Source: Mustelus asterias
Lineage: Eukaryota
NCBI RefSeq assembly: GCF_964213995.1
Contig: NC_135812.1
Location: 62,186,001 to 62,250,000 of the forward strand
DNA: 64,000 bases
Direction of reading: 5' to 3'
Each line of letters starts with the position of its first letter. Within the stretch, counting starts at the first letter, position 1. The position numbers and the translations under genes are program-made. Of this stretch, positions 10,840 through 63,090 are shown piece after piece. The notes below the pieces were generated by a model, which saw only the letters and a list, made by a program, of their open reading frames with translations, was not told the origin of the DNA and did not search any database.

Positions 10840-11114
10840 ATGATGTGGAGATGCCGGCATTGGACTGGGGTAGGCACAGTAAGAAGTCTCACAACACCAG
10901 GTTAAAGTCCAACAGGTTTATTTGGTAGCACGAGCTTTCGGAGCGCTGCTCCTTCGCATTCCAACCATTATCTTGTAAATTGAGTCTGTGCCTATACATG
11001 CCCTGTTTGTGCACCCAACTCTTCACTCACTTGATAAAGGTGCAGTGCTCCGAAAGCTCGTGCTACCAAATAAACCTGTTGCTCTTTAACCTGGTGTTGT
11101 GAGACTTCCTGCTG
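10840..11114 (-). mobile_element. Penelope-like element remnant: tail plus inverted pLTR
   Basis: 14-bp TSD TACATGGACTAGTC (10826-10839, 11115-11128); inverted arms of about 80 bp; degenerate hammerhead at 11028-11063. Confidence 0.85.
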
Positions 11115-12416
11115 TACATGGACTAGTCCCAACGGACATTTACACATTTCCATTTGAGGACTGTGTTCAGTGGATGAGGGGAGAATAACAGGAGGCTACC
11201 GCAGATATCAACTTTGTTTTGGGCAATAATCAAAGTCCAACAATCAACTGTACAATCCCTCAAGAGTGATGTGAGAAACAAGCAGCTTTATACCTCTCTA
11301 CATCAGCCAACTAAGGAGAAACCTTTCAGGAGCAGAAGTAATGGGTCTGGGGAGTGAAGTGTATGCAGTTATCTATCGAACTCTACTTGATGTAACTACA
11401 TATCAGTTTCATAAGTTGTAAAGCAATGGAAAATTGCCAACTTTGTTTCCACACAAGAACCTGGCCTAAGACCCATGTGGCAATGACTTTTGGCAGAGCT
11501 GCTAGATGTTATTGCTGTTGGATCACAAAGTTGCTTTGCATTTTAGAAATATTTTGCCAACTTTGAGCCAGCCTGTCGCCTATTGACCTATGGATTGTCC
11601 TTAGTAGAAGAATGTAGTAAACAAGTCGACTATACGACAACACTTTGATTTATATAGTGCCTTTAACATTGTAAAATGCCCCAAGGCGCTTCACCAAAGC
11701 TATGACTTGTTTTGGTAGAACTGGTGCACAGATGGTGACAATATTGCTCTGTAGAGCTGCCAATCTCCCACAAGCAAGAAGTAGAATCAAGTCATTTAAA
11801 AAAATCATTTCTCAAGGAAACAATTTCCATTTGCCTTCATTTTCCATCAGCCACCTGCCAGCGATTCACTTTTCATCCATTTCTAAAATATTGCTGGTCA
11901 ATTAAACCCTATGCAATACCCTGGATCCATCATTCTCAAAATCAGGGAGTTTATACAGTGAAAATTGGCAAGATTTAATCATGAAACAATCCTGTACTTT
12001 CCAATGTAGTTGATAATGGCCCTCGTCCAGCTTTAATAGCTACTTGGATCTAAACACTGACTCCCACGATCACCTGAATCAGCAAAGGACCAGCTGGCAT
12101 TCCTGATGACCATATAATCCGCACCCATAAGAGGTTTTTTTTGTTGTAAGGATGCCAAGTACAATCCAGAACAGTTGGAGCAGGTCTGAAACAGGAAGCT
12201 GCTGACTTGCATTGGCATCCCACTTACCCAGTCAAAAGTTTTTTCTGGGCAAGTGGGTCATGTTTGGCACCAAATTCTGGCCAAGCACCTAGACACTGGC
12301 ATCAGCTGCCAGGCAGGACTTAATAAAAGTAATGCTGCAACACCGGCCACAAAAACAGAACTGACTTGGGATGTTCACGGAAGCCTATCACCAGAGCGTC
12401 TAAGTATGTCAGTGGT

Positions 12417-12488
12417 CACAGTAAGTCGTCTCACAACACCAGGTTAAAGTCCAACAGGTTTATTTGGTAGCACGAGCTTTCGGAGCGT
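12417..12488 (-). mobile_element. Penelope-like pLTR fragment without tail
   Basis: 10-bp TSD TGTCAGTGGT (12407-12416, 12489-12498); CACAACACCAGGTTAAAGTCCAACAGGTTTATTTGGTAGC shared with the other copies. Confidence 0.8.
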
Positions 12489-12491
12489 TGT

Positions 12492-12850
12492 CAGTGGTGG
12501 CATAGTGGTATTGTCATTGGACTAGTAATCCAGGGATCCACTGGGGACCGGAGTTCGAATCCCACCATGGCAGATGGTGAAATTTAAATTCAATAAGAAT
12601 CTGAAATTAAAAGTCTAATCGTGACCACGAAACAATTGTCAATTGTTGTAAAAACCCTGGTTCATTAATGTCCTTTAGGGAAGGAAATCTGCTGTCCTTA
12701 TCTAGCCTGGCCTACATGTGACTCCAGATCCATAGCAATGTGACTGACTCTTAGATTCCTCTGAAATAGTTGCTCAGTTTAAGGGCAATTATGAATGGGT
12801 CACAAGTGCTGGCCCAGCCAGCGATGCCCACATCCTATGAATTAACTATT
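12492..12850 (+). mobile_element. tRNA-derived SINE (second family)
   Basis: TGGCATAGTGG A box, GAGTTCGAATCC B box, shared body. Confidence 0.8.
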
Positions 12851-13150
12851 TTAAAAGGCTGTTTTTCAAAGGTGCAAATGAAAGACCAATGCAGAACTGC
12901 ATGAATCTCATATAGGCTACAAGGGCCAATGGAGAATTATCAAATTGGCTAAAAACTTTGGAATGTTAACTGCCAACTCTCTATCACCCATTTTAAACTT
13001 TCAGACAGTCAAGGTGGATCCTATTGAGTCTTTTGTTCCTAAGCATAGAAATCACACTCCATATGGAACTAAGAATGCTAACAAAGGCTAACCAATAAGT
13101 TTTTATGACACTGCTGCAAGCCCAGACTGCTGCAGATCAAAACTGCCCTA

Positions 13151-13449
13151 GGGCAGCATGGTGGCACAGTGGTTAACACTGCTGCCTCACAGCGCTGGAG
13201 ACCCAGGTTCGATTCCCAGCTTGGGTCACACTCTGTGCGGAGTCTGCATGTTCTCCACGTGTCTGCATGGGTTTCCTCCGGGTGCTCCGGTTTCCTCCCA
13301 CAGTCTGAAACTCGTGCTGGTTAACTGCATTGGCCATGCTAACTTCTCCCTCAGTGTACCCGAACAGGCGCCAGAGTGTGGCGACTTGGGGATTTTCACA
13401 GTAACTTCATTGCAGTGTTAATGTACTTGTGACTAATAAATTAACTTTG
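13151..13449 (+). mobile_element. HE1-type V-SINE with alternative 3' tail
   Basis: HE1 head and V domain followed by GTGTACCCGAACAGGCGCC...TTCACAGTAACTTCATTGCAGTGTTAATGTA...AATAAA. Confidence 0.85.
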
Positions 13450-13494
13450 AATATAATTCCACAACCCAAAGAAAGGGAAGGAACTGCACTCAAA

Positions 13495-13630
13495 GGTTGG
13501 AATCTTACCACTGTTCACGCCGGCGGGACTCTCCTATCCCGCCACAGTAAACGGAGATTTGGCTGGCTGCCAAATTCTCCGACCTCGCTGCAGCGGGAGC
13601 GTGGGGTGAATGAGTGGTAAGATCGTGCCC
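13495..13630. mobile_element. Short MITE, subfamily A
   Basis: TIR core ATCTTACC / GGTAAGAT, AAA on both flanks, internal GATTTGGC..GCCAAATT. Confidence 0.65.
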
Positions 13631-13847
13631 AAAGTCTTGTGTTGTTGGTGCACTGAACATTTCTTCACTTGTTTGAAATACATGAATGCCTGAGCAGATG
13701 AAAATGTCTCTCGATTGTTTTATTTTCTAAGAGGATCTCGGGGTACAATAGCCCAGAAATATTTGATTAAGAGTATGAAGGAGGTGAATAAACGGAGTTG
13801 AGGCACAAATCAACCATGATCTAATTGAAAGAGGGAACAGTCTCAAT

Positions 13848-14186
13848 AGGCAACACAGCACTGCTGCCTCGCAGCTCCAGGTACCCAGGTTCAATTCCAA
13901 CCTTGGGTGACTGTGTGGAGTTTACACATTCTCCCCATGCCTGCATGGGTTTCAACCTGGTGCTCCGGTTTCCTCCCACAGTCCAAAGATGTGTTAGGTG
14001 TATTGGCCGTGCTAAATTGCCCCTTATTGTCCCAAGATGTGTAGGTTAGGTGGATTAGCCATGATAAATGTGTGGGATTACAGGGATAGGGCAGCAGAGA
14101 GGGACTGGGTAAGATACTGTCAGAGAGTTGTGTGGACTTGATGGGTCAAATGGCCTCTTCTGCACTGTAGGGATTCTATGATTCTA
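13848..14186 (+). mobile_element. HE1-type V-SINE
   Basis: Head, V domain and CTGCACTGTAGGGATTCTATGATTCTA tail. Confidence 0.85.
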
Positions 14187-14204
14187 AGGGGCTTAGTGGC
14201 CTAC

Positions 14205-14455
14205 TCACAACCCAAAGGGTTGTGAATCTGTGGAATTCCCTGTCCTGTGAAGCAGTTGAGGCTATCTCGTTGAATGTTTTTAAGGAAAAGATAGGTAGAA
14301 TTTTAAATAGTAAAGGGATCAAGGGTTATGGTGACTGGGTGGGTAAGTGGAGCTGAATCCACGAAAAGATCAGCCAAGATCTTATTGAATGGCGGAGCAG
14401 GCTCAAGGGGCCAAATGGCCTACGCCTGCTCCTAGTTCCTATGTTCTTATGTACT
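14205..14455 (+). mobile_element. CR1 LINE 3' end
   Basis: Matches 37580-37820 of the long CR1; ends in a (TTCTTATG)-type tail. Confidence 0.8.
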
Positions 14456-14666
14456 CCAGTTTCTATGGTCCAAAGTTCACAAAGGCCACTTCCCCTGAAT
14501 CTTACTCTAGCATATATATGTTGCCATAATTTATGGAGAAATGTTGATATACAAATAATTTGGTTGTCTACATACTGGGAATATGATGAACTGAGGACCA
14601 ATTGTGTGGTGCAATTTGAAATTTATTTGAGTTATTTCATTGTGGATTATTTTTTGTCTTCCACAG

Positions 14667-14822
14667 ATATTGACTCAAGAGGACTGGAACAAGGTCCTGT
14701 ACAATGGAATGGCCTCCACCTCTCCATTGGCTGCTCTATACTTCATTGCCCTCATGACATTTGGCAACTATGTTCTCTTTAACTTACTGGTTGCCATTTT
14801 GGTGGAAGGATTTCAGACTGAG
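14667..14822 (+). CDS. CACNA1G: Cav3.1 coding exon (exon 13 equivalent), domain II selectivity filter and S6
   Basis: ccacag|ATA...GAG|gtaaaa; 156 nt; [52 protein letters not shown]; the TQEDW glutamate is the domain II residue of the Cav3 EEDD filter. Confidence 0.97.
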
Positions 14823-15427
14823 GTAAAATAAGATGCGATGAATCTTTGAATGATGCATGAGTAATGGACAATGCCACCTGGTTTAATGCTGTATGTGATT
14901 TCTAATGTTCACTGGCATTCCCAGCTACCTGATAAATATGCAGCAGACAAGAAAACAAAGATAATGGGGGTCCTGTGTCACTTGAACAAAGGCAATGATA
15001 GAAAAGCATTGAATGTAAAGTTTCCATTCAAGGACCTGGGGGAGCAAGGCACTCTCAGCAGTCACCATTGAATTTGTTGACATTCAATTTTTAAAAAATT
15101 AAAAGTCATCAGTAACAATGCAATAAAATGCTCCATTAACATTCTATTAATTCCCATGTTCAAAACGGATATATAAAGTGGCTGTTAGACAGCATATTTG
15201 TTCCACTAAGACCATATGAGAAATTATAATTTAATAAATTATTCCCATTATAAGCTGTGATGTACCCCACTATATACCATGAAATACAATGGAAATCCCA
15301 TGATGCACTGTAATGTACGATGATATATTGTGAGTTACAGTTCCCGGGATCTTCCACCCCCCAAACCCGTGGCAGATTTGCAATCCTATCCCACATCGCT
15401 GCCCTGAATTGTGGCATTCCACACTCT

Positions 15428-15562
15428 GGTCGGAATTCTCCAGTCATTCACGCCCCACCACCACTGCAGCGAGGATGGAGAATTTTACACTCAGCCAAAT
15501 CTCCATTTACTGCAGCTGGACTGGACAATCCCGCTGGCGTGAACAACTGGAAAATGCTGGCC
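15428..15562. mobile_element. Short MITE, subfamily A
   Basis: GGTCGGAATTCTCCAG / CTGGAAAATGCTGGCC termini; body is the reverse complement of 10617-10751. Confidence 0.6.
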
Positions 15563-16482
15563 ACTCTGCTTGCTGTCAATAAAAAAATAATAGGTTTACC
15601 AGTAAAAACGCATTTATATGTCGGCACATTGTTAGCAACCCTGTCGCATTCTGCCTTGTAACAGGTTTATCTGGCATGAATTGCGGTGATCTGACAACTT
15701 AATCTGATGTTCTGGGGTAGTTATTCTGAAGTTTAAAATTGGCTGTACCTTAAATATTTGTCGGAATTGACACATCATTCTGAAACGCTGTGAAAAGTTA
15801 TCTGTACATTTAGTCACCCCCTTCGATTGTTTTCTTGAAAGTGCTGTTTGGAAGGCAGTAATGGGCAGGGTGCACAGTGTGTCCCCCTCAGTAACATTCT
15901 CCGGTTCTGCTCCTGTTTATGCAGACAGAGCTGCGTGACAGTTTCTAAGTGTTAAGGCTGTGATGTCAGTTGGTGCACCTTCTAACCTTCCTTTTATAGT
16001 AGCAAAGATTATGCAGCAATTCAGATGAATGCACTCTCCCTTTAGTGAGATCAGATTGCAGTTTGGACCACACTGGAATGAAGCTTGGATGTTTATTCCC
16101 TCGTGAGTTAATGCGGTGTCATTTGTTTTCTGCATGATCACCGATAAAATGTTTTCTTATGGAATTGATTTTGGATTTGAATTGTCAACCGATTGTGAAG
16201 TCTATTTCTAAATTCCTGTGCTTTTTTTTAATCATTGATTGATGGTTAGTCTTCATTGCTCTGCCCCAAATCCAGCCACATGGCCCTGTGTAATGAGATC
16301 ATGTATTATTCCAGGAACCCGTAACACTTTCAATTGGCAAATTTGAATTGTGCCCAAGGGAAAAAACAAAGCCAGGATAATTGGAAAAGTGCAAAGTTTT
16401 ATCCACATTCTGGGCTAGTTGATCTTCATTCTGGACTAGAGGAAGGCAAATTCTAGTTGACTGCTAGGATATGGAGGGGAAG

Positions 16483-16808
16483 AGCGACATGGTGGCACAG
16501 TGGTTAGCATTGCTGCCTCATAGCGTCAGGGACCCAGGTTCAATTTCAGCCTTGGGTGACTGTCTGTCTGGAGTTTGCACATTCTCCCCGTTACTGCATG
16601 GGTTTCCTCCGGGTGCTCCAGTTTCCTCCCGCAGTCCAAAGATGTGCGAGTTAAATGGATTGGCCATGCTAAATTGCTTGCTAGTGTCAGGAAGATTAGC
16701 AGGGTTAATACATGTAGTTACCCGGATAGGGCCTTGGTGGGATTGTTGTTGTTGCAGGCTCGATGAGCCGAATGGCCACCTCCTATACTGTAGAGATTCT
16801 ATGATTCT
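16483..16808 (+). mobile_element. HE1-type V-SINE
   Basis: GGTGGCACAGTGGTTAGC head, V domain, GATTCTATGATTCTA tail. Confidence 0.9.
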
Positions 16809-16904
16809 AAGAATTGTCACTTGAATACTACCCACTGAATCCCAGCTAGCAGGTAGGGTACAGGTAAGAACTAGAGCAGGTGTTATATGTTTTTGTTGCC
16901 TTTA

Positions 16905-17592
16905 ATAGAGTCATAGAGGTTTGCAGCACTGAAAAAGGCCCTGCAGCCCATCACATCTGCGCCGATTAAAAACAAACCATCTAACTATTCTAATCTCATT
17001 TTCCAGCACTTGGCCCATAGCCCTATATGCTTTAGTATCACAAGTGCACATCTAAATACTTTTTACTTATTATGAGGGTCTCTATCTCTACCACCCTTTC
17101 AGGCAGTGAGTTCCAGATTCCCACCATCCTTTGGGTGAAAAAGGTTTTCCTCACATCCCCTCTAAGCCTCCTGTCCCTTACCTTAAATCTATGTCCCTTG
17201 GTCATTAATCCTTCCACCAAGAGGAAAAGTTTCTTCCTGTCCACTCTATGCCCCTCATAATTTTATACATCTCAACCATGTCCCCCTTCAGTCTCCTCTG
17301 CCCCAAGGAAAACAACCCCAGTCTACCCAATCTCTCTTCATAACTAAAACTCTCCAGCCCAGGCAACATCCTGGTAAATCTCCTCTCCACCCTTTCCAGT
17401 GCTATCACATCCCTCCTATAATGTGGATTCCAGAACTGCGTGCAATAACCTAACTGTGGCCTCACCAATGTTTTATAGAGTTCCAGCATAACCTCCCTGC
17501 TCTTAAACTCTATGCTTTGGCTAATAAAGGCAAGTATACCATATGTCTTCTTAACCGCTTTATCCACCTGTTCTGCTACCTTAAGGGACTAG
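16905..17592 (-). mobile_element. CR1/HER1 LINE 3' fragment
   Basis: Minus ORFs LYKTLVRPQLGYCTQFWNPHYRRD and FFTQRMVGIWNSLP. Confidence 0.9.
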
Positions 17593-17652
17593 TGTACAGT
17601 ATTTCAAGGTAATAAGCTTTAAATGTTAAACTTGGAAAGATGAGAACTCCTA

Positions 17653-17780
17653 AGTCAGAATTTTACCACCCTGCCCACCATGGGAATTGAGGCGGGCAAT
17701 GGGCGGACAATGGGAAGGTCCCATCGACCTCGGGTGGGATTTTACAGCTTCGGGACAAGCACAGCCATAAAATTTTGCCC
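17653..17780. mobile_element. Short MITE, subfamily B
   Basis: GAATTTTA / TAAAATTT..GCCC termini; GACCTCGGGTGGGATTTTAC core shared with 47589 and 60591. Confidence 0.6.
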
Positions 17781-17899
17781 TTTCTGTTTAACTTGCCATG
17801 CTGCCTTGCACACAAGGAGGACCAGTTTGAACTGGTTCTGTTAAACATCATGTCTGTCGCTAGCGCAGCTGCAATACGTAGTCCCATAGAATGCTTACA

Positions 17900-36043: not shown

Positions 36044-37741
36044 ATGAGGGAAACGGCCGAGGCCTTAAACAAGTTTTTTGTGTCGGTCTTCACGGTAGAG
36101 GACACAAATAGCTTACCGAAAATTGACGGTCGTGGGACTGTAGGGGGTGAGGTCCTTAAAACGATTACTATTACTAAAGAGGTAGTGCTTGGTAGGCTAA
36201 TGGGACTAAAGGTAGACAAGTCCCTGAGCCCGGATGGAATGCATCCCAGGGTACTGAAAGAAATGGCAGAAGTAATAGCAGATGCGTTGGTTGTAATTTA
36301 TCAAAATTCGCTGGACTTTGGGGAAGTGCCGGCTGATTGGAAAACAGCTAATGTGACGCCACTGTTTAAAAAAGGAGGTAAACAAAAGGCGGGTAACTAC
36401 AGGCCAGTTAGCTTAATGTCTGTAGTTGGGAAATTGCTGGAATCCATCATTAAAGAAGAAATAGCAGGACACCTGGAAAAAAATGGTTCGATCAAGCAGA
36501 CGGAGCATGGATTCATGAAGGGAAAGTCGTGTTTGACGAATTTACTGGATTTTTATGAAGATGTTAAGAGTGCGGTTGACAGAGGGGATGTGGTGTTTTT
36601 GGATTTCCAGAAGGCGTTCGATAAGGTGCCTCACAAAAGGTTGCTGCAGAAGATTAAGGTACACGGAGTTGGGGGTAAAGCGTTAGCGTGGATTGAGGAT
36701 TGGCTATCTAACAGAATAGTCCAACGCCGGCATCTCCACATCATATCTAACAGGAAGCAGAGAGTTGGAATAAATGGGTGCTTTTCTGGTTGGCAGACTA
36801 GTGGCGTGCCGCAGGGATCAGTGCTGGGGCCTCAACTGTTTACCATATACATAGACTATCTGGAGGAGGGGACCGAGTGTAGGGTAACAAAGTTTGCAGA
36901 TGACACAAAGATGAGTGGGAAAGCGAATTGCGTGGAGGATGCGGAAATTCTGCAGAGAGATTTGGATAGGCTAAGTGAGTGGGCGAGGATCTGGCAGATG
37001 GAGCATAACGTTGACAAGTGTGAGGTTATCCACTTTGGAAGGAATAATAGTAAAATGGACTATTATTTAAATGGTGAAAAATTACAACATGCTCCTATGC
37101 AGAGGGACCTGGGGGTCCTTGTGCATGAATCGCAGAAACTCAGTTTGCAGGTGCAGCAGGTGATCAAGAGGGCAAATGGAATGTTGGCCTTTATTGCAAA
37201 GGGGATGGAGTATAAAAGCAGGGAGGTCTTGCTGCAATTGTACAAAGTACTGGTGAGGCCGCAACTGGAGTACTGTGTACAATTTTGGTCCCCTTGTTTG
37301 CGAAAGGATATATTGGCCTTGAAGGGAGTACAGAGAAGTTTCACCAGGTTGATACCGGAGATGAGGGGGTTATCTTATGAGGAGAGATTGAGTAGATTGG
37401 GCCTGTACTCGTTGGAGTTTAGAAGGCTGAGGGGAGATCTTATAGAGACATATAAGATAATGAAGGGGCTAGACAGGGTAGAGGCAGAGAGATTCTTTCC
37501 ACTTAGAAAGGAAACAAGAACTAGCCTCAAAATAAGGGGGAGTCAGTTTAGAACAGAGTTGAGGAGGAACTTCTTCTCTCAGAGGGTAGTGAATCTCTGG
37601 AATTCTCTGCCCATTGAAGCAGTGGAGGCTACCTCGTTAAATATGTTTAAGACAAAGGTAGATAAATTTCTGATCAATAAGGGAATTAAGGGTTATGGGG
37701 AGCGGGTAAGTGGAACTAAACCACTATCAGATCAGCCATGA
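36044..37741 (+). pseudogene. CR1 ORF2 reverse transcriptase reading frame (565 aa, defective copy)
   Basis: Motifs NYRPVSL, FLDFQKAFDKV, SGVPQGSVLGP and KFADDTK. Confidence 0.9.
36715..36743 (+). mobile_element. 29-nt Penelope-like tail-only insertion
   Basis: AATAGTCCAACGCCGGCATCTCCACATCA between perfect 10-bp TSDs TATCTAACAG (36705-36714, 36744-36753). Confidence 0.9.
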
Positions 37742-43800: not shown

Positions 43801-44177
43801 GTGAGTGACACCAGTGACTGAAAAATACAAGAAACCAATCTGCAGCTGCTTCCTCTCAAGTGGCTTTCAAATGAATTCTACTTCTGTGGACTGCAGGGAA
43901 ACAATGAAAGAAATTGCATCCATTTTCTGCTCAGGAATGTTCACTGAGAGCGAGAAAGCTCAGGTTAGAGTGAAACCGTGAATAACCACAGTGGGAGTCT
44001 GAGAGTGAGAAAGGTCAGACATTGATAGAAGTCAGCTGCACATTATACTTGAATATTTTCTCTGGGACAAGAGTTTGGACCTGGTGTGAACAGAAGGAAT
44101 GGATGTTCTCTCACACTGTTTCCCTACAGGTTGCTTTGTCACTACTCTCTCCTCTAGCCCAGACTGACAATGAGCAA

Positions 44178-44388
44178 TATCATACAATCCCTACGGTGCA
44201 GAAGGAGGCCATTCAGCGCAACAAGTCTGGACCAACTCTCCGTCAGAGCATTTTACCCAGGCTTCTCCCCCGCCACCCTCTATCCTATCCCTGTAACCCT
44301 ATGTAATTACCCTGCTAATCCCCTTAACCTACTCATCTATGGACACTAAGGAGCAATTCAGCATGGCCAATCTGCCTAACCTGCACAT
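44178..44388 (-). mobile_element. 5'-truncated HE1-type SINE
   Basis: Tail and CATGGCCAATCTGCCTAACCTGCAC segment only. Confidence 0.75.
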
Positions 44389-45074
44389 GGAAATGCTGAG
44401 GGGAAGCCCCCTTTTTTTAACTACCCTTTCCATTTGCTTCGCTATCTCCAGCTCTCCTCTTCATTCTCTCTTGTCCCCCACCTTCTCGTCTCCAGCTTTT
44501 CCCTCTTATCTTCTTCTCTATATTTCACCCCCAGACTCCCACCGTGGTTATTCATGGTTTCACTCTGACCTGAGCTTTCTCGCTCTCAGTGAACATTCCT
44601 GAGCAGAAAATGGATGCAATTTCTTTCATTGTTTCCCTGCAGTCCACAGAAATATAATAAATTTAAAAACCACTTGAGAGGAAGCAGATGTAGATGGTTA
44701 GGATAATCAAATAAATCAGACAGCTCTCCAAAAGCAAACACATTAACAGCAAGGCATGTTCGGTGAGTTTGCCCGCATGTGCTTTGCAGCAGATGTTTCC
44801 ACATCAGAAACAATTTGTTAGAATCTGGATCATTCAGTGCGTTAAAAACTTATTTGGGAGTTTGAATTCCTGATTAAATCCATTATAAAGACTTGTACTA
44901 TATCTGCACTTAATTGCAAGAGGGTTGGCTATGGTTATTATTGCTTTGTTGCTGCAAAAGGGAAGCACATTGAATACTGATCTTTGTAGTGAAACTTGCT
45001 GTTTTCGGTGACAGAAATGAAACCAAATCTGAAATTCGACAATCGGACTGACACGTGCGAACTTGTTTCCACAG

Positions 45075-47716: not shown

Positions 47717-48424
47717 AACAATTTTTTAATAGACTCAGGAGCTAAATTTTGAAAAGATCCCAGACAATTATTTTTAACAATCATTGATAAGCCAAAACAG
47801 CAGAGTCAGCATTCACAGACATCATAAACCTTGAGCAGTCCTGGGCAGCTTAATTGACATTGTTTTTATCTCTGAGGTTGTGGGTTCAAATCCCACTCCA
47901 GAGAGTTAGGCCAGAATTATATGCTTTTATATGTTCCCAAATCCCCAGGAATGTGCTGATAGGTGGGGTTCCATAAAATTAGGTAGTATGCAGGGGTCTC
48001 AGACCTGGCGCCTACCTGCCTCCACTGCTACATTACCAGCAGTGGAATAGGTGGCAAGAAGCATGTCCACCCTCATGCCAATGCGGGCCCTTAAGTGACC
48101 AACTATTTATTATTTTACCTGCCCACACAACATGGTAAATTCTGGCAAACTAGCTGCAGGCTCTGGGTGGGGGGTCCATCCTGCTTGGGTACCCTGCCTG
48201 ACTGATCCTGGCATAGCCTCCCCAACCCACTTTTATATCTGGCCTCCATGCTGCCCCTCGTGGGGACTGCCTGAAGTACCAAAAGTGGCCACTGCTTCCA
48301 GTGGCGCTCCTGGGACAGGAGGCATAAGTCACTCCCTTCGCCACTTAACAGCCTGACTGCCATAAAGTCAAGTCATGGCATCCTCACCCTGTGGAGGTGA
48401 GCCCACCCCTGACCTTTCAGCCAG

Positions 48425-48679
48425 AGTAAGAAGTCTAACAACACCAGGTTAAAGTCCAACAGGTTTATTTGGTAGCAAAAGCCACTAGCATTCGGAACAG
48501 GCTGTTCCTTCATCAGGTGGGTGGGAGTTCTGATCAGAACTCCCACCCACCTGACGAAGGAACAGCCTGTTCCGAAAGCTAGTGGCTTTTGCTACCAAAT
48601 AAGCCTGTTGGACTTTAACCTGGTGTTGTTAGACTTCTTACTGTGTTTACCCCAGTCCAACGCCAGCATCTCCACATCA
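48425..48679 (+). mobile_element. Penelope-like fold-back insertion: 218-bp palindrome plus 37-nt tail
   Basis: Palindrome 48425-48642 centred on TGATCA, 3 mismatches; TSD TGAC(C)TTTCAGCCAGAG (48410-48426, 48680-48695). Confidence 0.9.
48547..48585 (+). ncRNA. Minimal type I hammerhead ribozyme motif
   Basis: CCAC-CTGACGA-A-GGAACA(GCC)TGTTCC-GAAA-GC-TA-GTGG: stem I, conserved core, stem II, palindromic AGCT stem III, UH site. Confidence 0.75.
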
Positions 48680-49574
48680 TGACTTTCAGCCAGAGGGCAG
48701 GCCCACCGCCTCCATGAAAAATTTGGGCCTTGAACACACATTCTAGGCTGTAATTCTAATACCAGCACTGGGGGAGTCAGTTGTCTTTTCACTGAGATTT
48801 TAAACTATGGTCCTATCTGTCCTCACATGTGGATGTCAAAGATCCAATAACACTTGGTGTTATATGATGCATACAGATCTTTAAGGGTGTAATAATTTCA
48901 TTTTCTAATTCAGCCTCTAGTTTAGAACAAAGGGGGATGTTGTGATATGATGTGCATGGACCTTCAAGGGTACATTTCTGAAACTACTGTCAATCACTAC
49001 CCTTTTTGACAGAGGATGTGATATATTAATCCCATGACTCTGTACTCAGTATACAGCAGCAATAGTCAAGATCAGATGTGCCTCTCAGTCTCCCAGTGAA
49101 CATTATCTGTATATAGTCTTACCTTCTAGTAAAGAAAATCCACATTATTGTTTTCTAAATCCTTCTCACATGATTGGTACATTTACATTAAATAGAAGAA
49201 TGTAATAGCACTCTTCAAAGATGAGCAGGGAAGTTTTCCCTGATATCCTGGCCAATATTTATCCCCCAACCAGTATCTAAATCAGAAGATCCAGTCATTT
49301 ATTTCATCAATGTTTATGCTATCTGTAGACTCTGGCTGACTGTTTCCTACATTACAACAGTGACTACTCTTGAAAAGCACCAATTCGATATATTATGCTT
49401 TGGGATGTAATGAGATTATGAAGGACACCGTGTAAATGCAAGTATTTCATTTGTTTATCCGTTTACATGTACCCAGTGCTCTGCTCTGACCACTGGCAGT
49501 CCTATTCTTCACTCCCTGCTCAGTATCACTTGAATGAAGGTGCACCAATTCCTCAAATAGGCAACTGCAGCACT

Positions 49575-52400: not shown

Positions 52401-52519
52401 AATGATCACCCCATGATTTTGACACAATCGACTTCTGTTGTCTGCTATGGTCAGTGTTGTGACACCACATTAAGGGTTCAAATGAAGTAGTTGTGAGGAT
52501 GAAAAAGTAAGTAAAGGCT

Positions 52520-53438
52520 AGGGGCCGGATTTTCACCATCGAGGCAGGATACTCGAGTCAGGAAATTTCTGAACTTGGCAGACCCAGTTGTATTAAAGGT
52601 TGTTAGGCCCTTAAGTCTTCACCCCTCACACCCCTTCATGCACCCACCTACTTCCCATGCCACATCCCGAGGCAATCTATGAACTAGAACAATAGAAACA
52701 AATAGCCAGACATACGTTTCTCCAGATAGCCTCATTATGAATGCATGACTAAGCTCCAAGACTCATTAATGGATTAGCTCCACCTAACTTCAAAGGTGTT
52801 TGCTTTGATTGATTGACATCTGTACTAGGTTATAATAAGTTATTCTTTCTTTGAACAGTTTCTTTCAATGTCTGTATATTTAGTTGGAAAGGATTGAAGT
52901 GAGCTAGTTATTGATACTATAATCAGTATGTCTGACCTGAATGACACTTCTATAGAATTGTAAGAGCAGCAGTTGCTTTTGAAGCAGATTTTTGAATGGG
53001 AGTATGAAGGGGCCTTGGGGGTCATGGAAGAGGGAATGGGGTTTTGGATGTGGCTTGATGACATGGAGTTGCCTTGCCTGGTGGGAGCAGGGAGGGCGGG
53101 AGGGCATGGAGGCAGCATTGAGGGCATGGATAAGACCTGTTAAAATGGTTATTGAATCGAGACAATGGCTCACATCTGCTCTGAATGGTTGTAAACTACG
53201 TGTCCTTGAAATGCTGGCCTGACTGCGCAAACATTGCAGGAGGGTATGAGATTCCCACCCCAGTAAGGATCCAGCCAGGTAGGGAGTGCAGGGTGTGGGC
53301 TCACTACCTGTACCCTTATCTCATGCTGGCGAAAATTGCCGCATTGGGAATGGGGGCGGGAATCCAAGAATCAGGGCCCACCTACCATTTTTAAGGGTCT
53401 CCGGAATCTGCCCAACTCCGCACAAATCCAACCCCAGG
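52520..53438. mobile_element. Possible longer non-autonomous DNA transposon related to the MITEs
   Basis: GGGGCCGGATTT / AAATCCAACCCC imperfect termini; non-coding interior. Confidence 0.4.
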
Positions 53439-54319
53439 GCTAAAGCATTGTAGTATATTGTTAACATAGCACTTAGCTGTTGGCAATTGCCAATTACTTA
53501 ATAAACTTGCAATAATGGCGTGATTCTTGATTCTTCTGGTATGAAAGCCTGTTGCTTTTAAGGGGATGAAGATTACTCTATTGTACTCATAACTATAACT
53601 ACCAGCAAACTGAACACAAGCTGACTTATTTTACTTTTGACCATGCCTCACTCTCTACTCACGCAATCTTTCATCCCCTGTCAATCTACACTTTCTTTCC
53701 ACCATCATTTCATCCCTTACCAAGCTGACTTCTTTCATATCATTTCTATTAGACAGTTACGAATAGATTCTTGATCCTATGAACAGGATAATGCTTAACA
53801 CACTTGTGTGACATTCCTCTGTGCAGTAGCCTGGGTTGCATACTAAAAGAACAGATTGAGTATTAAAGGTTAATCCACTAACATTACGAATGCTAACGTC
53901 TCCGTTATATTCCTTACTGTGTCATACGGGAGATCATTGATAGATCATTGATAGCCCATGGGCTTTGTGGAATATGAGCATCTTCATTGAGCGAGCAGAG
54001 GCTCACCCAATGAGAAGTGGACAGCAGGAGCTTATAAACCTGCTGCCCAACTTGCACCGGCATTATAGGTCCCGAGGTGTAGACTGTCTAGCTGTTAGCC
54101 GCAGGTGCAGTCCTTCTCTTTGGTACACAATAGAGGTTCTTTGGTGATAGGAAACTAGTGTCTGGCTGAAGTACCAAAGATACTCAGTACTTTAGAACTT
54201 TTTCCCAACTCAAACTGAAGGGTGAGGATTGGAGGAAGATGAAAGGTAGGCTTTAATTTTACATACCAGTTGGAATATTCACATGGGAAAGAAGACATTT
54301 ACTGGGCTTGGGGCAAAGA

Positions 54320-54552
54320 CAGTAAGAAGTTTGACAACACCAGGTTAAGGTCCAACAGGTTTATTTGGTAGCAAAAGCCACACAAGCTTTCGAGGCTCTG
54401 AGCCCCTTCTTCAGGTGCTTCACCTGAAGAAGGGGCTCAGAGCCTCGAAAGCTTGTGTGGCTTTTGCTACCAAATAAACCTGTTGGACTTTAACCTGGTG
54501 TTGTCAAACTTCTTACTGTGTTTACCCCAGTCCAACGCCGGCATCTCCACAT
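54320..54552 (+). mobile_element. Penelope-like fold-back insertion: 98-bp arms, 3-nt loop, tail
   Basis: Arms 54320-54417 and 54421-54518 with 1 mismatch; 13-bp TSD CTTGGGGCAAAGA (54307-54319, 54553-54565). Confidence 0.92.
54421..54457 (+). ncRNA. Minimal type I hammerhead ribozyme motif (mirrored on the - strand at 54381-54417)
   Basis: CAC-CTGAAGA-A-GGGGCT(CAG)AGCCTC-GAAA-GC-TT-GTG. Confidence 0.72.
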
Positions 54553-54939
54553 CTTGGGGCAAAGAACAGGGAATTGGAACTGATTGGATAGCCCTATCAA
54601 TGAGCTGGCGTGGACTTGATGGGCTGAATAGCCTCATTCTGCGCTGTGAGATTGTATGAATAAGAGGAAGTAACAGAATTACAGTAATAAAATTAGGAGA
54701 GATATTAGAAGGAAAAAGATGACTGAGGCAGGACTAACTTCTAGGCTATAATCCCAATGGCATCACACATATTTACCAGCCTGGGTCTTGTCCAATTCCT
54801 TGTTTCCATCAACTGGGAAATTGCAGAGTGACTTCCCAGTTTGACATATGTTTACATTCTTAAAACTAAGAACAAAAAAGGAAGAAATTTATCTTTTTAA
54901 ATAATCAGAAAACGTTGGTTACGAGGCTGTTTTTGTTCA

Positions 54940-57040
54940 GTTATAAAATAGTACCAACACAGAAAGAAACCATGCACTGGAAGGGCAATCTAGTTAATCT
55001 CATGCCCCAGCTCTTTCTCCCTGGCCCTACATTTTTTTTCTCATTCGAGTATTTATCCAATTCCCTTTTGAAAACTGCAACTGAATCTTTTTCCACCACT
55101 TTATCAGGCAATGCACAGAAATTCGAATCACTCATTGTGCAAAAATTGGAGCAGTAGGCCATTAGGCCCATCAACCTTGCTCCTCCATTCAAACAGATCT
55201 TGGCTGATCATTTACCTCAATGCCATTCTCTTAATATCCCTTGATCTCATTAGTATCCAGAAATTTGTTCATTTCTGTCTTGAAGATGTTCAATGATTGA
55301 GCTTCCATAGCCCTCTGGGTAGAAAATTCCAAAGATTCACCACCCTCTGAGTGAAGAAATTCCTCTTAATCTCAATCTTAAATAGGCTGCTGCTTATTCT
55401 GTATCCCCTGGTTTGAGACCCAGGAGAAGCATCCTATCCACATCTTGCTTGTCACACCCTGTAACAATTTTGTAAGTTTCAATTGCATCACCTTCAAAAT
55501 TCTAGGGGAGACAGGCCCACTTTCCTCAATCGCTCCTCATAAAACAATCCCTCCATCCCAGGGATTAGTCTGGTGACCTTCATTGTGCTCCCTCTATGGC
55601 AAGCATATCATTCCTTAGATAGGGAGACCAAAACTGAAAACAGTACTCCTGATGCAGTCTCGCCAAGGCTCTATACATTTGCAGCAAGACATCTTGACTC
55701 CTGTACTCAAATCCCCTTGAGATAAAGGCCAACATATCATTTGGCTTCCTAATTGCTTACTGCAGCTACATGCTAGCTTTCAGTGACTCATGAACAAGGA
55801 CATCAGGTCCCTTTGGACATCAGCACTTCCTAACCTCTCCATTTAAGAAATACTCTGCAGTTCCGTTTTTCCTACCAAAGTAAATAACTTCACACTTATT
55901 CACATTATATTCCATCAGCCATTTTCTTGTCCATTCACTTAACCTTTCATATCCCCTTGAAGCCTCCTTGCATCTTCCTCCCAACTCACATTCCCGCCTA
56001 GTTTTGTGTCATCAGCATGTTTGGAAATGTTACATTTGCTTGACACATCCAAATCATTTATAACTCTACCCTCTCGTACCCTTCAGCCTTCAGAAACAGT
56101 TTCTCTTGTTTGCTAACCCAATCTCCACTTAGCCTTCTCTGCTCCAAAGAGAACAATCCCATCTTTAGCCACCTCATTTATTTCTTTTGAATGAGTCAAA
56201 TTCTGTGAACATCTTTAACATCAAACAGGGGAGCTGACAAATTGGAGATAGATAAATAAAGAGATGTAATTTAGTATGCTAATGAGTATAGGCATAGAAA
56301 CATAGGAACAGGCTAGGCCATTCGGCCCCTCAAACATGCTCCGTTATTCAATAAGATGGTAGTTGATCTGATTGTGGCCTCAACATCACTTTCCTGCCTG
56401 ACCCCCATAAACCCTGGCTCCCTTGTTGATCAAAAATCTGTTTTTCTCAACCCTTAACATTTTCAGTTACCCAGCCTCCCCTTCTGTCTGGGGAAGAGAA
56501 CTTCAAACACCGATGATTGGCTGAAAGAAGAAATTCCTCCTCCTTATCTTTGTCTTAAATCATTATTTTATGTACCCCTAAGTTCTAGATTCCACCATGA
56601 CAGGAATCATCCTCTCAGCATCTACCCTCTCAAGCCCCTTTCAGAACCTTTCATGATTCCATAAGATCACCTCTCGTTCTTCAAAACTCCAATGAGTATA
56701 GTCACAACCTGTTCAACGTTTCCTCATAAGAAATGGGAGCGTGAGTAGGCCATTCAGCCCTTCAAGCCTGCTCCAGCATTCAATGAGATCATGGCTCATA
56801 AGACCATAACATGTAGGAGCAGAAGTTGGCCATTCGGCCCATCAAGTCCGCTCTGCCATTCAATGAGATCATGACTAATCTGATATGATCTTCTATTTCA
56901 AGACCATTTTCCTGCACTATCCCCGTATCCCTTGATGCTTTTAATATGCAGAAACTTATCGACCTCTGCCTGAATATACTCAATGCCTGAGCCTCCACTG
57001 CAACCTGGAGCAGAGAATTCCAAAGATTCACAACCCTGTA
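54940..57040 (-). mobile_element. Cluster of stacked CR1 3' fragments
   Basis: Repeated GTAGGCCATT(C)AGCCC/GGCCC tail signatures near 55150, 56310, 56745 and 56825; minus peptide NLWNSLLQVAVEA. Confidence 0.8.
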
Positions 57041-57636
57041 AGTAAAGAGTAATTAATCAACTGCCCACATTTAGTAATATTAGTGACGATCTTATCTTCA
57101 TTGTATGTGTGTGAGCAGCAAAGTGTCAACTGAGAAGAGGAGACAGATACATGTTGGCTGCCAGTGGGTTAAAGAGAAGCTTGGTCATTGTCCTGAGATT
57201 TGACAACCATATGCAGTTGTTCAAGATCTGAGCCCAAAGTTTGTAATGGATTCATAACACCTATTCTACAACAAATCCTGAAATGTCCATGTAGGTTACA
57301 GTCCATGCATCTACAGTTTTACCAAATTATTATTATACAATTAATGCAATAATTAAAATATCACTTTTATTGAAGATGTTTTACTTATTTATGGCAACAG
57401 TGCTGGAGGGGATTGTATACAAGGTGATGTTTTATTGCTGGGCTTATTACCATTTTGTTAAAATTCAATTACTGTTCTCTGGCAGACATTTAAATAAAGT
57501 GAGAGGGGAAAGATATGCTGTGAAAAGAGAGGAAAGAAATAGCTCTGCTATCAGAAAGGATGAGAGAGCCAACCAGATAAAGCTGGCACTGTGCTACAGC
57601 TTGCCAAAGCCAATTACATTTATTGCCAGTGCTGTA

Positions 57637-57755
57637 ATATGAACAGGGCTCCCTGAGTAACTCTGGGGTCAGCTTTGTTATATGAACAGGGCTCCCTGAG
57701 TAAATCTGGGATCAGCTGTCATATGAACAGAGCTCCCTGAGTAACTCTGGGGTCA
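57637..57755. repeat. 41-43-bp minisatellite x3
   Basis: ATATGAACAGGGCTCCCTGAGTAACTCTGGGGTCA starting at 57637, 57680 and 57721. Confidence 0.92.
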
Positions 57756-59359
57756 ATGCTGGAAAGTTGAAAGACGACACTTTTATTGTCACTGCTGTAA
57801 ATCTCCTCCGCCAGATGTAAATGGGTCAAAGTGAGCAGCTCCATCATGTTGCAGATACATAAAAAGCATCCTTCAGCGGAATTGCTGCATCACGCTACAG
57901 TATGTATGTGGAATTGGATAGATCTGTGCTAAAGCTCTATGATTGACACAGAGGGTGTTAGACAGAATATGCCATGGATCCACATGAGAAATTAGATTGC
58001 GCTATTGCTGCACAGTGCAAATAGGTTATTAACCAAGCCTGCAATATTGCTCCATGGGTACATACCCACAGTACCAGATAATCACACAGATATTTCCCTG
58101 CAGTTTAATCAGAGCATTAGACAGACTGGCAATACCACCTCAGTATAAGCTTTACATCTGGCATTAAACAGGTCCCGCCCAATTAACATTACCTTAACAT
58201 TGATCTGAGTACGTCATGTGTGATGAGATCCCGGATCTTGTTAACAATCCTTGCTTTTTCTCACAGTGGAATCCTGGCGTTCTGAGGTAAACACTCCATT
58301 GCTTCCTTTGACCTACAATTGAAAAGTCAGCTCTGATATTTTCATGCTGGCCAGCACAAATATACTAGTGTTTTTTTTGAAGTTGTCCATGGGCTGCTGA
58401 AAATGCCCATGGGTTGCATCTGTACTTACTACTTCATATTTTGTTTGTGCAGTCAACATTCTCTGATCTCTGGCCCATTGTGTAAATAAAGAACATGTGA
58501 AAAAGCTGAAGTTTAACTAAACATTCTGATGGCTTTTTAATTTGGTATTTGCATGTGAGAGACACACACACAGGGCAAAGTTTTTCTTTTCAGCAAATAT
58601 ACTTTATTCTTGAAATGGGTGAAAGTACTGTGAACAACCATTCAAATTTGACATTACGTAAAGTGTACTGCAATCCAGCTTTCTGTCAGTTACAGGCTGT
58701 CACACTTTGAGGTGCCATACTACACCTAGAATTACAGGTTTTTTACAATATCTGCTTGCATTTCATGTCAAACATTCACTGGTGCATGCAGCCTGAGGGG
58801 TTTCGCACAGGTTTCAGTCCCGCATTGAAAGATGGCTGGAGGCCTTAGGCTGTGGCCTTTCTTACACTTCTGGATCTTGGAATATGCAAGTCTGCAACTT
58901 TCATTCAAGGACAACTCACTGCATTGGAAGACCAGCAGATTTTAGGCAGACTAAAGCGAGCCTTTCACCTTTGATGGTCCTGCAGCAGGAGTTAACGTTT
59001 GTGTCAGTGTACCTCCCTGGGAACAGCCCAAGGGTGCTGTGTAGCAGAACTGCGCAGGATGAACCTCAACAAAACCATCGCATCTCTCCCCGTTTCTTTA
59101 CAATGGCAGATTCCAGAAAGAGGTGGGCGACCATCTGTTCCCCATTCGAAGACGGCGTGCGGTGGTGGAGTCTCCAGGTGCACATGATGGATCTGACAGA
59201 AAAGGCCCTTCTAACCACCAGCCAGTCTACATCTTGCTGCTTGTTGAAAAGCCCTGAAAATGAGGCATTTTGCCAAATTGTAGTCACAGAATAGATACCG
59301 CTGAGGGAAACCAAGATATTCATGCTGCAGAAAGGAATGACCCTCCAATTGTCATTTCT

Positions 59360-59606
59360 TCCAGGGACCCGGGATTGATTCCCAGCTTGGGCCACTGTCT
59401 GCACGTTCTCCCCGTGTCTGCTTGGGTATCCTCCGGATTCTCCAGTTTCCTCCCAAAGATGTACTGGTTAAGTGCGTTGACCATGCTAAATTCTCCCTCA
59501 GTGTACCCGAACAGGCGCCGGAGTGTAGTGACTAGGGGATTTTCAGAGTAACTTCATTGTCATATTAATATAAGCTTACTTATGACACTAATAAGTAAAC
59601 TTTAAA
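59360..59606 (+). mobile_element. Truncated HE1-type SINE with alternative tail
   Basis: V domain then GTGTACCCGAACAGGCGCCGGAGTGT...AGTAACTTCATTG. Confidence 0.8.
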
Positions 59607-60590
59607 CAGTAGCAGGATTGCTAATCAGAAGGCACAGATCTGTGATCATTAACAAAAGAATCAAAGGGGCATTCAGGAGATTTTGTTTTAGGCAGCATGT
59701 TTGTTATAATCTGTAATGCGCTACCTGAGAGGCTGGAGAGAGCGATTCAATAATAAACAGCAGTGACAATAATAAGCTTCCTAAGTGTGGGGAGATTGCA
59801 GTCCAGTCTGTGCCAATGGCTCAGTTTTCTCACTGTTATGATACTTAGTTATTTTCTGGGAAAGTCGTGGCCCTAGTTTATAGTTGAGGTCATCCTCAGG
59901 TTGGGAAAGCAGCAAGTGTGATGGGCCAAACAGTCTCTTCTTTTTCCAAACTCTCTTCATGGGCATTCTTTAGCATCAGTGCGGTTACAAATTTAGAATG
60001 TCAAATCTGAGTAGCAGTCTGCTGAATGAATGTGACTGATTTAGCCCAGTGTTACACCAGTCCATCAGGAACCACTTTTGAGTGGCCTTGATGGAATGAC
60101 TGCCATAGCTCACGCCCTATGATTCAGTATGCTATCCCCTTTAATAAGACCTAATGTGGAACATGCAAAGGGAAAATTATTGGCCTTGCGATTCATTGAC
60201 TTCCCTCCAGCTTATAGTTCAACAGCAGCATTTCCCTGGAAATTCCTCTAATACTTCCCTTGGTGTTTTGAGGGGAATTCTCCATGGTCTGCACGCAAGT
60301 GTCTGATAGTTTGCCAGACTGCTGAAGTCTGTCAATGCCCTTACACAGCGCACTGGATTAGGAAGCCAAGAAGTAATTGCTTGCAGCTGAAGGTTTTCTC
60401 GTGCAAGCAAAACTTTGATGAAACTGTTCATCAGCTCCTTTTTCTGTTACAGGATGAGATCCGAGCTTCAAAAATCTAAAGGACTCTGTTGCACAGCATT
60501 TTCCTCAACACCCTCCACCCCCATCCTCCTGCAAACCGTCCTTCTCTCTAGCTCTGAAGAATGGTCACGTGGACTCGAAATCTTAACTCT

Positions 60591-60706
60591 GGGTGGAATT
60601 TTCCCATCCCTCCCGCCACGGGAATTGTAGTGGACCGTGCAAAGGTCCATTGACCTCGGGTGGGATTTTACAGCCTTGGGGCGAGCGAGGCTGGAAAATC
60701 CCACCC
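60591..60706. mobile_element. Short MITE, subfamily B (PIF/Harbinger-like)
   Basis: 14-bp TIR GGGTGGAATTTTCC / GGAAAATCCCACCC (13/14 match), TCT on both flanks. Confidence 0.75.
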
Positions 60707-61670
60707 TCTATTTTCTCTCTTTTTTTTGTTTCAGATTCCTGCATCCGCAGTATTTTGCTATTTTAAGTGCTCTGTAAAGCTGGGGGAAGTTGCACACTCA
60801 CTGAGGGGGATTTTAAAATGCAGCTCAATGTGGAACAGGACACTGGGGTCCAAACTAGTGCATGCAGCAGCAACATCAGAACAGGACTTGCACTGAATGG
60901 CATCAAAATGAGTCCAAACCATGAAGGAGGAATAAGCTGCATACGTTTAATTTCAGCTTATTTCTTCAGCCCATCCTGTATTGTGAAGGATCGGCATCAG
61001 AAACTCCTATCGTCAGCATGCTTCAATGGTTCCAGCTAGCTCCTGCCTTTTCCCAAAGCTTTTATAAGCCGCTCTCCTGCATTATGTTCTTACATTCTTC
61101 ACGGAAGAACTGCTTATTGAATCAACTGGAAAAAAAATATTTTCTTTAAAAACTGCTACAGTAGCAGGAAGGCGACAGTAATCACAGAGTGAAGCTGGGC
61201 TTGAAATAAGTAAAGTTGGCAAGTGATGGGGGCAGCCTTCGAGTCATGAATTTACAATCTAAGCATTTTGCTACATCCTGTTGTTATTAAACTGACAGCC
61301 AGTCACAAAGAGCTGTTTCCCTTGTCACCATGGTGATAATTCAATCATTGGGGCTAGGATTTGGGACCACCACATAAAGCAGGCGAAATTGAGCTCCGGG
61401 CTGGGGAACTTTGGAACCGGGAGCCTGGGAATCTCTCGGCAATTCCTTACCCCAAGTGAAATTTGGAGTAAAGTAGCTCATGATCACTTTGTCCCATCAT
61501 TATTATGGTTAGCCTGAACATTTCTGCTTACGATATCAGCCTGATGCATTCAGAAGCATTCCTCTGATATTTTGTTGCTATCATTAAACTGATTATTTAA
61601 ACACAAACGGATATTGTATCAGTGAGCATTGCATTTATTCACTGTGGTACCTAGTTGTCTATTAGAAGTT

Positions 61671-61803
61671 GGGGGCGGGATTTTCCATTCCCGCCAGCAG
61701 CAGGATAAGCCTGCTTGGGCAAGACAAAAATTGGGAGAGCAGTCAGTCTTCCCATCCCGCCCGCAGCGATGCCTGATGCTGGTCAGACCGGAAAATCCCA
61801 CCC
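61671..61803. mobile_element. Short MITE
   Basis: GGGCGGGATTTTCC / GGAAAATCCCACCC termini. Confidence 0.65.
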
Positions 61804-61840
61804 GTGTTGTCTTGAGTATTTTTTTTCACGAACACAGATC

Positions 61841-62220
61841 TTTGGCATAGTGGTAATATCAATGGATTGGTTATCCAGAAACCTAACCTAATGCTCTGGG
61901 GACATGGGTTCAAATCCCACCAGGGCAGCCGGTGGAATTTAAATGCAGTTAAGAAAATCTGGAATCTAAAGCTCGTCTCGGTGCTGGTGACCATGACAGT
62001 GTTGTCATAAAAGCCCATCTGGCTCACTAATGTCCTTTAGGGAAGGAAATCTGCCATCCTTACCCGGTCTGGCCTACATGTGACTCATAACCCATAGCAA
62101 TGTGGTTGATTCTTAAATGCCCCCTGAAATGGCCGAGCAAGCCACTCAGTTCCAAGGTAGTTAGAGCTGGGCAACAAATGCTGGAGCAGCCAGTGACATC
62201 CACATCCCCTAAAAGATTAA
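61841..62220 (+). mobile_element. tRNA-derived SINE (second family)
   Basis: TGGCATAGTGG A box, GGGTTCAAATCCCAC B box, shared body. Confidence 0.8.
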
Positions 62221-62606
62221 TTATTAACAGGCAGGAAAAGACCGACTGGTGCATCAAGCCCACCTCACACCATGACAACCCAAACATTGTGGCTAAATAT
62301 TCCCTTTCTCTTCCAGTTGCATATTCCGTGATAGCAACATTGGGACTGGATTTTTAGGCCCTGATGGGTCGAGTATGGTGGAGCAGGAATTTTGATCACT
62401 GGCCCACTTGCTAATTCCCCAGTTCCAGCCTATCCATTGTTTTCATTTCGCAAAAGTTGGGGGTGACAAGGGGGTACAAGGCTACCTACCCACAAAGGAC
62501 TGGTAACCACTTAATTATGGCTTGAGGCCAATCGTCAGACGCCACCCCCAGACCTCCTGAGGTACCAGAAACTAAGCCAGCTGTCCGAAGCTAGTTGTTT
62601 CAGCTG

Positions 62607-63090
62607 TGATGTGGAGATGCCGGCGTTGGACTGGGGTGAACACAGTAAGAAGTCTCACAACACCAGGTTAAAGTCCAACAGGTTTATTTGGTAGCAAATA
62701 CCATAAGCTTTCAGAGCGCTGCTCCTTCGTCAGATGGAGTGGAAATGTGCTCTCAAACAGTGCACAGCGACACAAAATCAAGTTACAGAATACTGATTAG
62801 AATGCGAATCCCTACAGCCAGCCAGGTCTTAAAGGTACAGACAATGTGGGTGGAGGGAGCATTAAACACAGGTTAAAGAGATGTGTATTGTCTCCAGACA
62901 GAACAGCTAGTGAGATTCTGCAAGTCCAGGAGGCAAGCTGTGGGGGTTACTGATAATGTGACATAAATCCAACATCCCGGTTTAGGCCGTCCTCATGTGC
63001 GCGGAACTTGGCTATCAGTTTCTGCTCAGCGACTCTGCGCTGACGTGTGTCGTGAAGGCTGCCTTGGAGAACGCTTACCTGAAGATCCTA
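62607..63090 (-). mobile_element. 5'-truncated Penelope-like retroelement (ORF C-terminus, hammerhead, tail)
   Basis: TSD TTTCAGCTGTGA (62598-62609, 63091-63102); minus frame 63087-62947 DLQVSVLQGSLHDTRQRRVAEQKLIAKFRAHEDGLNRDVGFMSHYQ*, with the E...GLN pattern of a GIY-YIG C-terminus. Confidence 0.85.
62701..62737 (-). ncRNA. Minimal type I hammerhead ribozyme motif
   Basis: Reverse strand CCAT-CTGACGA-A-GGAGC(AGC)GCTCT-GAAA-GC-TT-ATGG. Confidence 0.75.

Follow-up and report, generated by a model that had tools for sequence, protein, structure and literature searches.

How Penelope-like elements (PLEs) integrate is stated to be an unresolved matter in two reports (PMC8557442, PMC11167929). 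In vitro, the Poseidon element of Anolis carolinensis cuts and extends both target strands, with two internal reverse transcriptase (RT) start sites flanking a tail and with a predicted dimer as the enzyme (PMC11167929). Endonuclease-bearing (EN+) PLEs have one open reading frame (ORF) with a TERT-like RT and a C-terminal CCHH GIY-YIG endonuclease, and they form partial tandems with an inverted 5′-truncated copy, a 30–40-nucleotide (nt) tail that is often one-ended, target-site duplications (TSDs) and a minimal hammerhead (PMC8557442, PMC3846280); a CX2-5CxxC linker between RT and endonuclease defines their Neptune and Nematis clades (PMC8557442). In LINE-1 twin priming, both target ends prime, the TSD is discrete, and both the site of second priming and the inversion junction show microhomology (PMC10760644, PMC11702581). 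Here we analysed a 64,000-nt stretch of the shark Mustelus asterias (contig NC_135812.1 of assembly GCF_964213995.1, positions 62,186,001 to 62,250,000; hereafter the window), where a first-pass annotation had proposed six insertions of one Penelope-like family forming a series of integration outcomes. These six copies, together with samples of the rest of the genome, bear likenesses to each of the above systems, and their probable route of insertion, in our judgement, is twin target-primed reverse transcription (TPRT) from one symmetric cut, with two RNA start sites flanking the tail.

The six stretches are indeed one Penelope-like family, all being 5′-truncated copies of one parent element. 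The first-pass annotation had called for a parent with a PLE-type RT plus GIY-YIG, and a genome search with copy 6 found one at locus L033, where a unit of 3018 nt holds an 892-codon ORF that is open from its ATG. Its RT domain is recognized by PF00078 (E 1.9e-9), with DKG and YxDD conserved, and the predicted RT fold has telomerases as its top matches (Z 16.8, root-mean-square deviation (rmsd) 3.7, 308 aligned). PF01541 matches the GIY-YIG domain with E 2.5e-4 and 21.7 bits, slightly below the cut-off of 22.6, and the predicted model of residues 789–885 resembles the catalytic domain of I-TevI (Z 10.8, rmsd 1.8, 91 aligned). The conserved endonuclease residues (among them CCHH and the catalytic R, H, E and N) are Y793, C797, C801, Y806, G808, R817, H821, H837, H843, E867 and N882. 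Between the two domains lies a CX4CxxC linker, with C754, C759 and C762 conserved in 64–67 of 73 rows; the Penelope/Poseidon clade is recognized by the absence of a CX2-5CxxC linker, and here it is present. By linker and domain makeup, the parent is classed as an EN+ PLE of the Neptune/Nematis type. The family also carries the structural hallmarks of EN+ PLEs, namely a partial tandem or pseudo-long terminal repeat (pseudo-LTR), an inverted 5′ copy, an optional 30–40-nt tail and a TSD.

Copies of full length are arranged as partial tandems whose 5′ ends vary, and in full-length tandems the 37-nt tail directly precedes the ATG of the next unit. The nearest named homologues of the parent protein are shark proteins (79–93%), and a sequence search for a solved PLE protein structure matched none. 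A 30-nt arm pattern is matched exactly 114,062 times across the genome, and an arm-plus-tail pattern 49,529 times. In one subfamily with a 3097-nt unit (L119–L130), copies on different contigs share ~100% identity over kilobases; it is therefore very young.

Pairing of the ends and the palindromic target

To describe the inserts, we call an end that carries the tail a tail end and one that stops at its 5′ boundary tail-less. Pairing was counted in samples of the genome, on head-to-head pairs with a TSD of at least 9 bp. Among such inverted insertions, 132 of 135 join one tail end to one tail-less end, the remaining three being one tail/tail and two apparent tail-less pairs; independent choice of ends would predict about half to be mixed. 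The proportion was 83/84 in the first set, which over-represents full-length loci and loci with arms but is not biased to mixed over tail/tail pairs, 45/47 in a held-out set (loci from tail-free queries plus random tiles), and 4/4 in further random tiles. The two held-out exceptions proved to be mis-paired: they are ordinary insertions lying next to each other in a minisatellite that has been duplicated. Inverted insertions outnumber simple ones by 60 to 25 in a sample that favours two-arm copies. The simple copies (n = 34) divide into 18 that are tail-ended, one of them an internal-tandem artefact, and 16 that are tail-less. The tail/tail insertion (L088 / L115, G000 C6:1912748) consists of a full-length unit and a short inverted arm, with a 13-bp TSD and a TG-N16-CA target.

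In the rebuilt empty sites, CTG lies two bases beyond either edge of the TSD when the two strands are read in turn, giving (C)TG-N2-[N12]-N2-CA(G). Both half-sites are present at 48 of 83 sites, as against 1.3 expected, at 27/47 held-out sites, at 59/111 after repeated host sites were removed, and in 17/34 simple copies. The TSD is 12 or 13 bp long in 57/83, and sites with a 12-bp TSD carry the T in 75/86 and the G in 78/86. Across the genome, the place predicted relative to a tail-less arm is occupied by TG in 12,064 cases, compared with 2,608 for the CA control. Spacings of N14, N15, N17 and N18 were also tried and scored below N16. The TG-N16-CA motif is a preference. Since the target is two-fold symmetric and the stagger fixed, a dimeric nuclease would be its likely source.

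End windows, arm lengths and junctions

The ends of the element fall into two windows flanking the tail. Taking the last base of CTTACT as 0, we surveyed 323 anchors in 1.26 Mb: 145 end at or before +10 and 144 at +32 to +51, with 6 between and 28 reading through into the ORF. At 74 sites where the cut could be defined by the motif, the windows narrow to −7 to +5 and +34 to +47, each ~12 nt wide. The first-pass annotation had every inverted arm starting at the AGTAAG boundary and had deduced two fixed priming or template-jump positions. The starts are non-random, as it implied, given the bimodal ends, and in the three inverted window copies they do lie at or within 3 nt of AGTAAG; two positions exist and they look like priming sites. 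In the genome sample, however, the boundary is a window rather than a point, so single-base fixed start points are ruled out, and template-jump sites are not what the ends resemble. The series of outcomes from one family is likewise supported, but the palindromic target and the pairing of one tail end with one tail-less end were missing from that account.

What the ends resemble follows from the target bases adjoining them, which match the continuation of the element over 1.57 and 1.35 nt, versus 0.56 and 0.60 nt when permuted (65 of the 74 motif-defined sites; none of 5000 permutations equalled the observed values). Where the same host-repeat site was hit at different loci, the ends are often identical. 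Furthermore, 3 of the 16 tail-less simple copies start with scraps of the tail end in reverse orientation, one of them repeated, as would be expected had priming on the second target end been aborted. Judged by these footprints, the two windows act as priming sites tuned by target microhomology, rather than as template-jump sites. Two pairs of loci (G000 C1:2067416 / C5:95578323 and C1:405502 / C1:1278613) share a host-repeat site and have the same or nearly the same ends with very different insert lengths; these are either independent hits or cases of carriage by the host repeat.

The same data bear on a route already proposed in print for PLEs, by which self-priming takes place on an antisense transcript (PMC3846280), or the endonuclease resolves an extrachromosomal hairpin DNA at the two tail boundaries (PMC8557442), before the product is integrated. 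Such a route would account for a tail on either side and for palindromic junctions. The ends, however, track microhomology to each target overhang and recur at re-hit host-repeat sites, as priming predicts, the aborted tail-end scraps are located on the free target end, and in vitro the template on which Poseidon primes is sense RNA (PMC11167929). We thus rate this route as improbable.

Either arm can be the longer one. Of 83 insertions chosen without regard to their junction, 28 have a longer tail-less arm and 25 a longer tail arm, and in 30 the two lengths agree within 10 nt; the extremes (tail-less/tail) are 3028/33 and 72/3907. One junction hot spot yields both reciprocal products, in a ratio of 10:7. 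Therefore, single priming with fold-back is not the sole route. A scheme of this kind, in which priming occurs at the tail end alone, the cDNA folds back, synthesis halts at AGTAAG and the RT jumps from there to the other target end as template (one way to read the first-pass inference), or in which hairpin mini-elements are themselves mobile, does fit window copies 4 and 5 taken alone, and the recurrence of one junction in many copies could be cited in its favour. But the longer tail-less arms, the tail-less simple copies and the existence of both reciprocal products of the recurring junction, with ends that differ, are all at odds with it, and 3-kb tail-less arms paired with short tail arms contradict it as sole route; we consider it very improbable.

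The lengths of the two arms are nevertheless coupled: 25 of 51 pairs agree within 10 nt versus 4.1 expected, and 6 of 37 long pairs versus 1.2. Rare variants are common to both arms at 50/118, 11/14 and 4/13, compared with 2–4% in the control. Co-termination and shared rare variants point to one RNA as the template of both arms. Among the 24 junctions that could be parsed exactly, inserts are present in 14; of the 10 without one, 9 show at least 2 nt (2–5 nt) of homology, against a null of 16%. The inserts match nearby sequence better than shuffles in 12 of 20, some of which perhaps reflect alignment ambiguity at palindromes. These junction features resemble what we take to be the marks of theta-mediated end joining.

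A closer competitor likewise starts from two primings, except that one long complementary DNA (cDNA) folds back, is copied toward its start and anneals to the short cDNA on the opposite end of the target, so that the shorter arm copies cDNA and not RNA. The excess of equal arms, the junctions at local hairpins or palindromes, and the near-identical arms with their shared rare variants would all follow. Arms that differ by up to 3–4 kb in either direction would, however, require very large loops, and the frequent junction inserts, with their matches to nearby sequence, look like the joining of two free ends. We regard this variant as unlikely, and as the foremost of the alternatives.

In the twin-priming model that we prefer, the enzyme, probably a dimer, would cut both strands 12 nt apart at (C)TG-N16-CA(G), the TSD edges lying 2 nt inside TG/CA, and would leave 12-nt 3′ overhangs, judging from TPRT logic and the TSD. 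One target end would then prime at the 3′ end of the tail and the other at its 5′ boundary. Both cDNAs would be copied from one RNA, in the course of which RT primed at the tail would displace the first cDNA. The two antisense cDNAs, of variable length, would be joined by polymerase-theta-like end joining, whereupon each may template the second strand of the other by fill-in. The apparent fold-back point is thus probably the join of two separately primed strands. One-sided failure would give a simple tail-ended, tail-less or tail-only copy, and, combined with twin priming, would account for all six structures in the window.

Several points weigh against this model. First, as to the pairing, one genuine tail/tail insertion exists; 9 of 93 pairs have 7–8-bp repeats and fell below the 9-bp cut-off, 3 of them tail-less at both ends; and with no TSD filter, 72 of 82 adjacent head-to-head pairs are mixed, with 5 tail-less/tail-less, 2 tail/tail and 3 unclassed. 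Second, as to the target, exact TG-N16-CA is found in only 2 of the 6 window copies, and neither half-site in 11 of the 34 simple copies. Third, starts within the two windows are uncorrelated (r −0.07), so their spacing is not rigid. Fourth, a single cDNA folding back would likewise produce both equal arms and shared variants, and the latter would also follow from two RNAs of one source locus or from gene conversion. Fifth, Poseidon is reported to prefer ATT, to use start sites that do not differ by strand and to lack homology at the primer (PMC11167929), and for an element of the Neptune/Nematis type the model is read from genomic footprints only.

The six window copies and the hammerhead motif

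All six copies have exact TSDs, of 14, 10, 10, 13, 13 and 12 bp for copies 1–6, respectively, whereas repeats of at least 10 bp arose in 4 of 2000 random position pairs. The claim of a TSD at every copy therefore stands, but the range of 10–17 bp given by the first-pass annotation does not, the longest exact one being 14 bp and 17 bp being unsupported.

Copy 1 is flanked by a 14-bp TSD at 10826–10839 (plus strand), repeated at 11115–11128. Its tail-bearing arm (10840–10956, minus strand) has the tail plus ~79 nt, and its tail-less arm (10953–11114, plus strand) is the longer at ~161 nt; the arms overlap by ~4 nt at the junction. The latter arm takes in what had been called a non-element spacer, which is instead the 3′ untranslated region of an older subfamily of the same element (75% identical). 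The target region (window 10780–11170) loosely resembles an old tail/boundary, a likeness that is not significant, as 7% of random stretches score equally. Copy 2 (12417–12488, minus strand) is a non-inverted tail-less arm with its 10-bp TSD at 12407–12416 and 12489–12498. Copy 3 (36715–36743, plus strand) is a tail-only insertion in a LINE-like repeat, with its TSD at 36705–36714 and 36744–36753 (10 bp exact, 12 bp with one mismatch) and a TG-N16-CA target. Twenty-one paralogous empty sites, that is, host-repeat copies carrying the duplicated bases once, were found for it; among the window copies, a search for such sites succeeded for copy 3 only. Tail-only copies are rare, copy 3 being the sole TSD-bounded one found.

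Copies 4 and 5 are inverted, each with the tail-less arm on the minus strand and the tail arm on the plus strand. For copy 4, an inverted insertion does lie where it had been annotated (48425–48679), but the 13-bp TSD (48414–48426 and 48683–48695) sets its bounds at 48427–48682; its arms, of 115 nt and 115 nt plus tail, meet at a palindrome, and its target is TG-N17-CA. Copy 5 (54320–54552) has arms of 97 nt and 98 nt plus tail, a 13-bp TSD (54307–54319 and 54553–54565) and a TG-N16-CA target. Copy 6 (62607–63090, minus strand) is 5′-truncated and tail-ended, and its 12-bp TSD (62598–62609 and 63091–63102) shares 3 nt with the end of the 37-nt tail (62607–62643, minus strand). The GIY-YIG-like C-terminus proposed for it was borne out: the C-terminal 46 codons of the endonuclease lie at 62947–63087 on the minus strand, which encodes the last residues of the domain with 94% identity to parent residues 858–891.

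Copy 6 also contains, in its pseudo-LTR, a minimal hammerhead motif (62700–62742, minus strand) with the core CTGANGA ... GAAA and a palindromic AGCT replacing helix III. Using a minimal descriptor taken from PMC4209133, we found the core in 322 of 448 anchors, 60–95 nt upstream of the boundary, with the pairing of helices I and II retained across subfamilies; an Rfam search gave no hammerhead match. Two roles for the putative ribozyme were considered and rejected. Its cut is not the AGTAAG boundary, the predicted cut being 61–63 nt upstream (~61 nt in copy 6), nor is it seen as a fixed 5′ end, with full-length copies beginning anywhere from 0 to ~−1500. Only 7 of 114 arm ends fall in the predicted cut zone (56–65). 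A cluster of arm 5′ ends (31/114 at 80–109; element ~−80 to −110) at or just upstream of the core possibly reflects stalling of RT.

The window holds further inverted pairs. At 731–2146, 424-bp inverted arms that are 99% identical flank a 568-bp common repeat, with no TSD, no similarity to the Penelope-like element and no counterpart elsewhere in the DNA examined. Pairs at 43833–44699 (171-bp arms, 92%) and 6647–7158 (a 70% palindrome) also have no TSD.

Relation to known systems and significance

Part of this picture is already known, namely the two start sites flanking the tail, from Poseidon in vitro (PMC11167929), and one-sided tails. Poseidon, however, belongs to another clade and has its tail inside the ORF, whereas the Mustelus tail directly precedes the ATG, and coupling of start site to target end is not reported in the available parts of that study (PMC11167929). 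Known EN+ PLEs are described as going to microsatellite or AT-rich targets, and their tail has been ascribed to endonuclease resolution or self-priming (PMC8557442, PMC3846280). The Mustelus element, by contrast, prefers a spaced palindrome, and its tail is almost always on one side only, whichever arm is the longer. As for LINE-1, the twin-priming signatures are all seen, at the level of sequence only: both ends primed with microhomology, a discrete TSD and an end-joined junction. Yet in LINE-1 the second primer anneals at a variable internal site beside the end of the first cDNA, and the arms barely overlap (PMC10760644, PMC11702581), while in Mustelus both sites are fixed windows ~37 nt apart, one stretch of RNA is copied into both arms, and most of the sampled insertions are inverted. 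A palindromic PLE target, near-obligate end pairing and a twin-priming model for PLEs were not found in the literature searched; the older PLE reviews (2005/2006), a 2004 endonuclease paper and Repbase reports lay outside that search, and the motif may be in print there.

More tentatively, and at somewhat short of an even chance in our estimate, twin priming may be the programmed mode of integration of PLEs in general. A dimeric RT-endonuclease would read a spaced palindrome in the manner of a restriction enzyme, make a double-strand cut with a 12-nt stagger and hold one RNA with its active sites at both ends of the 37-nt tail, and the two joined cDNAs would replace ordinary second-strand priming. 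If so, one geometry would explain the tail, the inverted pseudo-LTR and the TSD.

The element lends itself to direct tests: its target (CTG-N16-CAG) and stagger (12 nt) are defined, the two start windows on the RNA are mapped, the ORF is open, one subfamily is very young, and natural products number in the tens of thousands. Should the model be true, twin priming, which is occasional and still unvalidated for LINE-1, would be how an entire class of retroelements normally inserts, and sequence-preferring double-strand cuts followed by end joining would be frequent in shark genomes.

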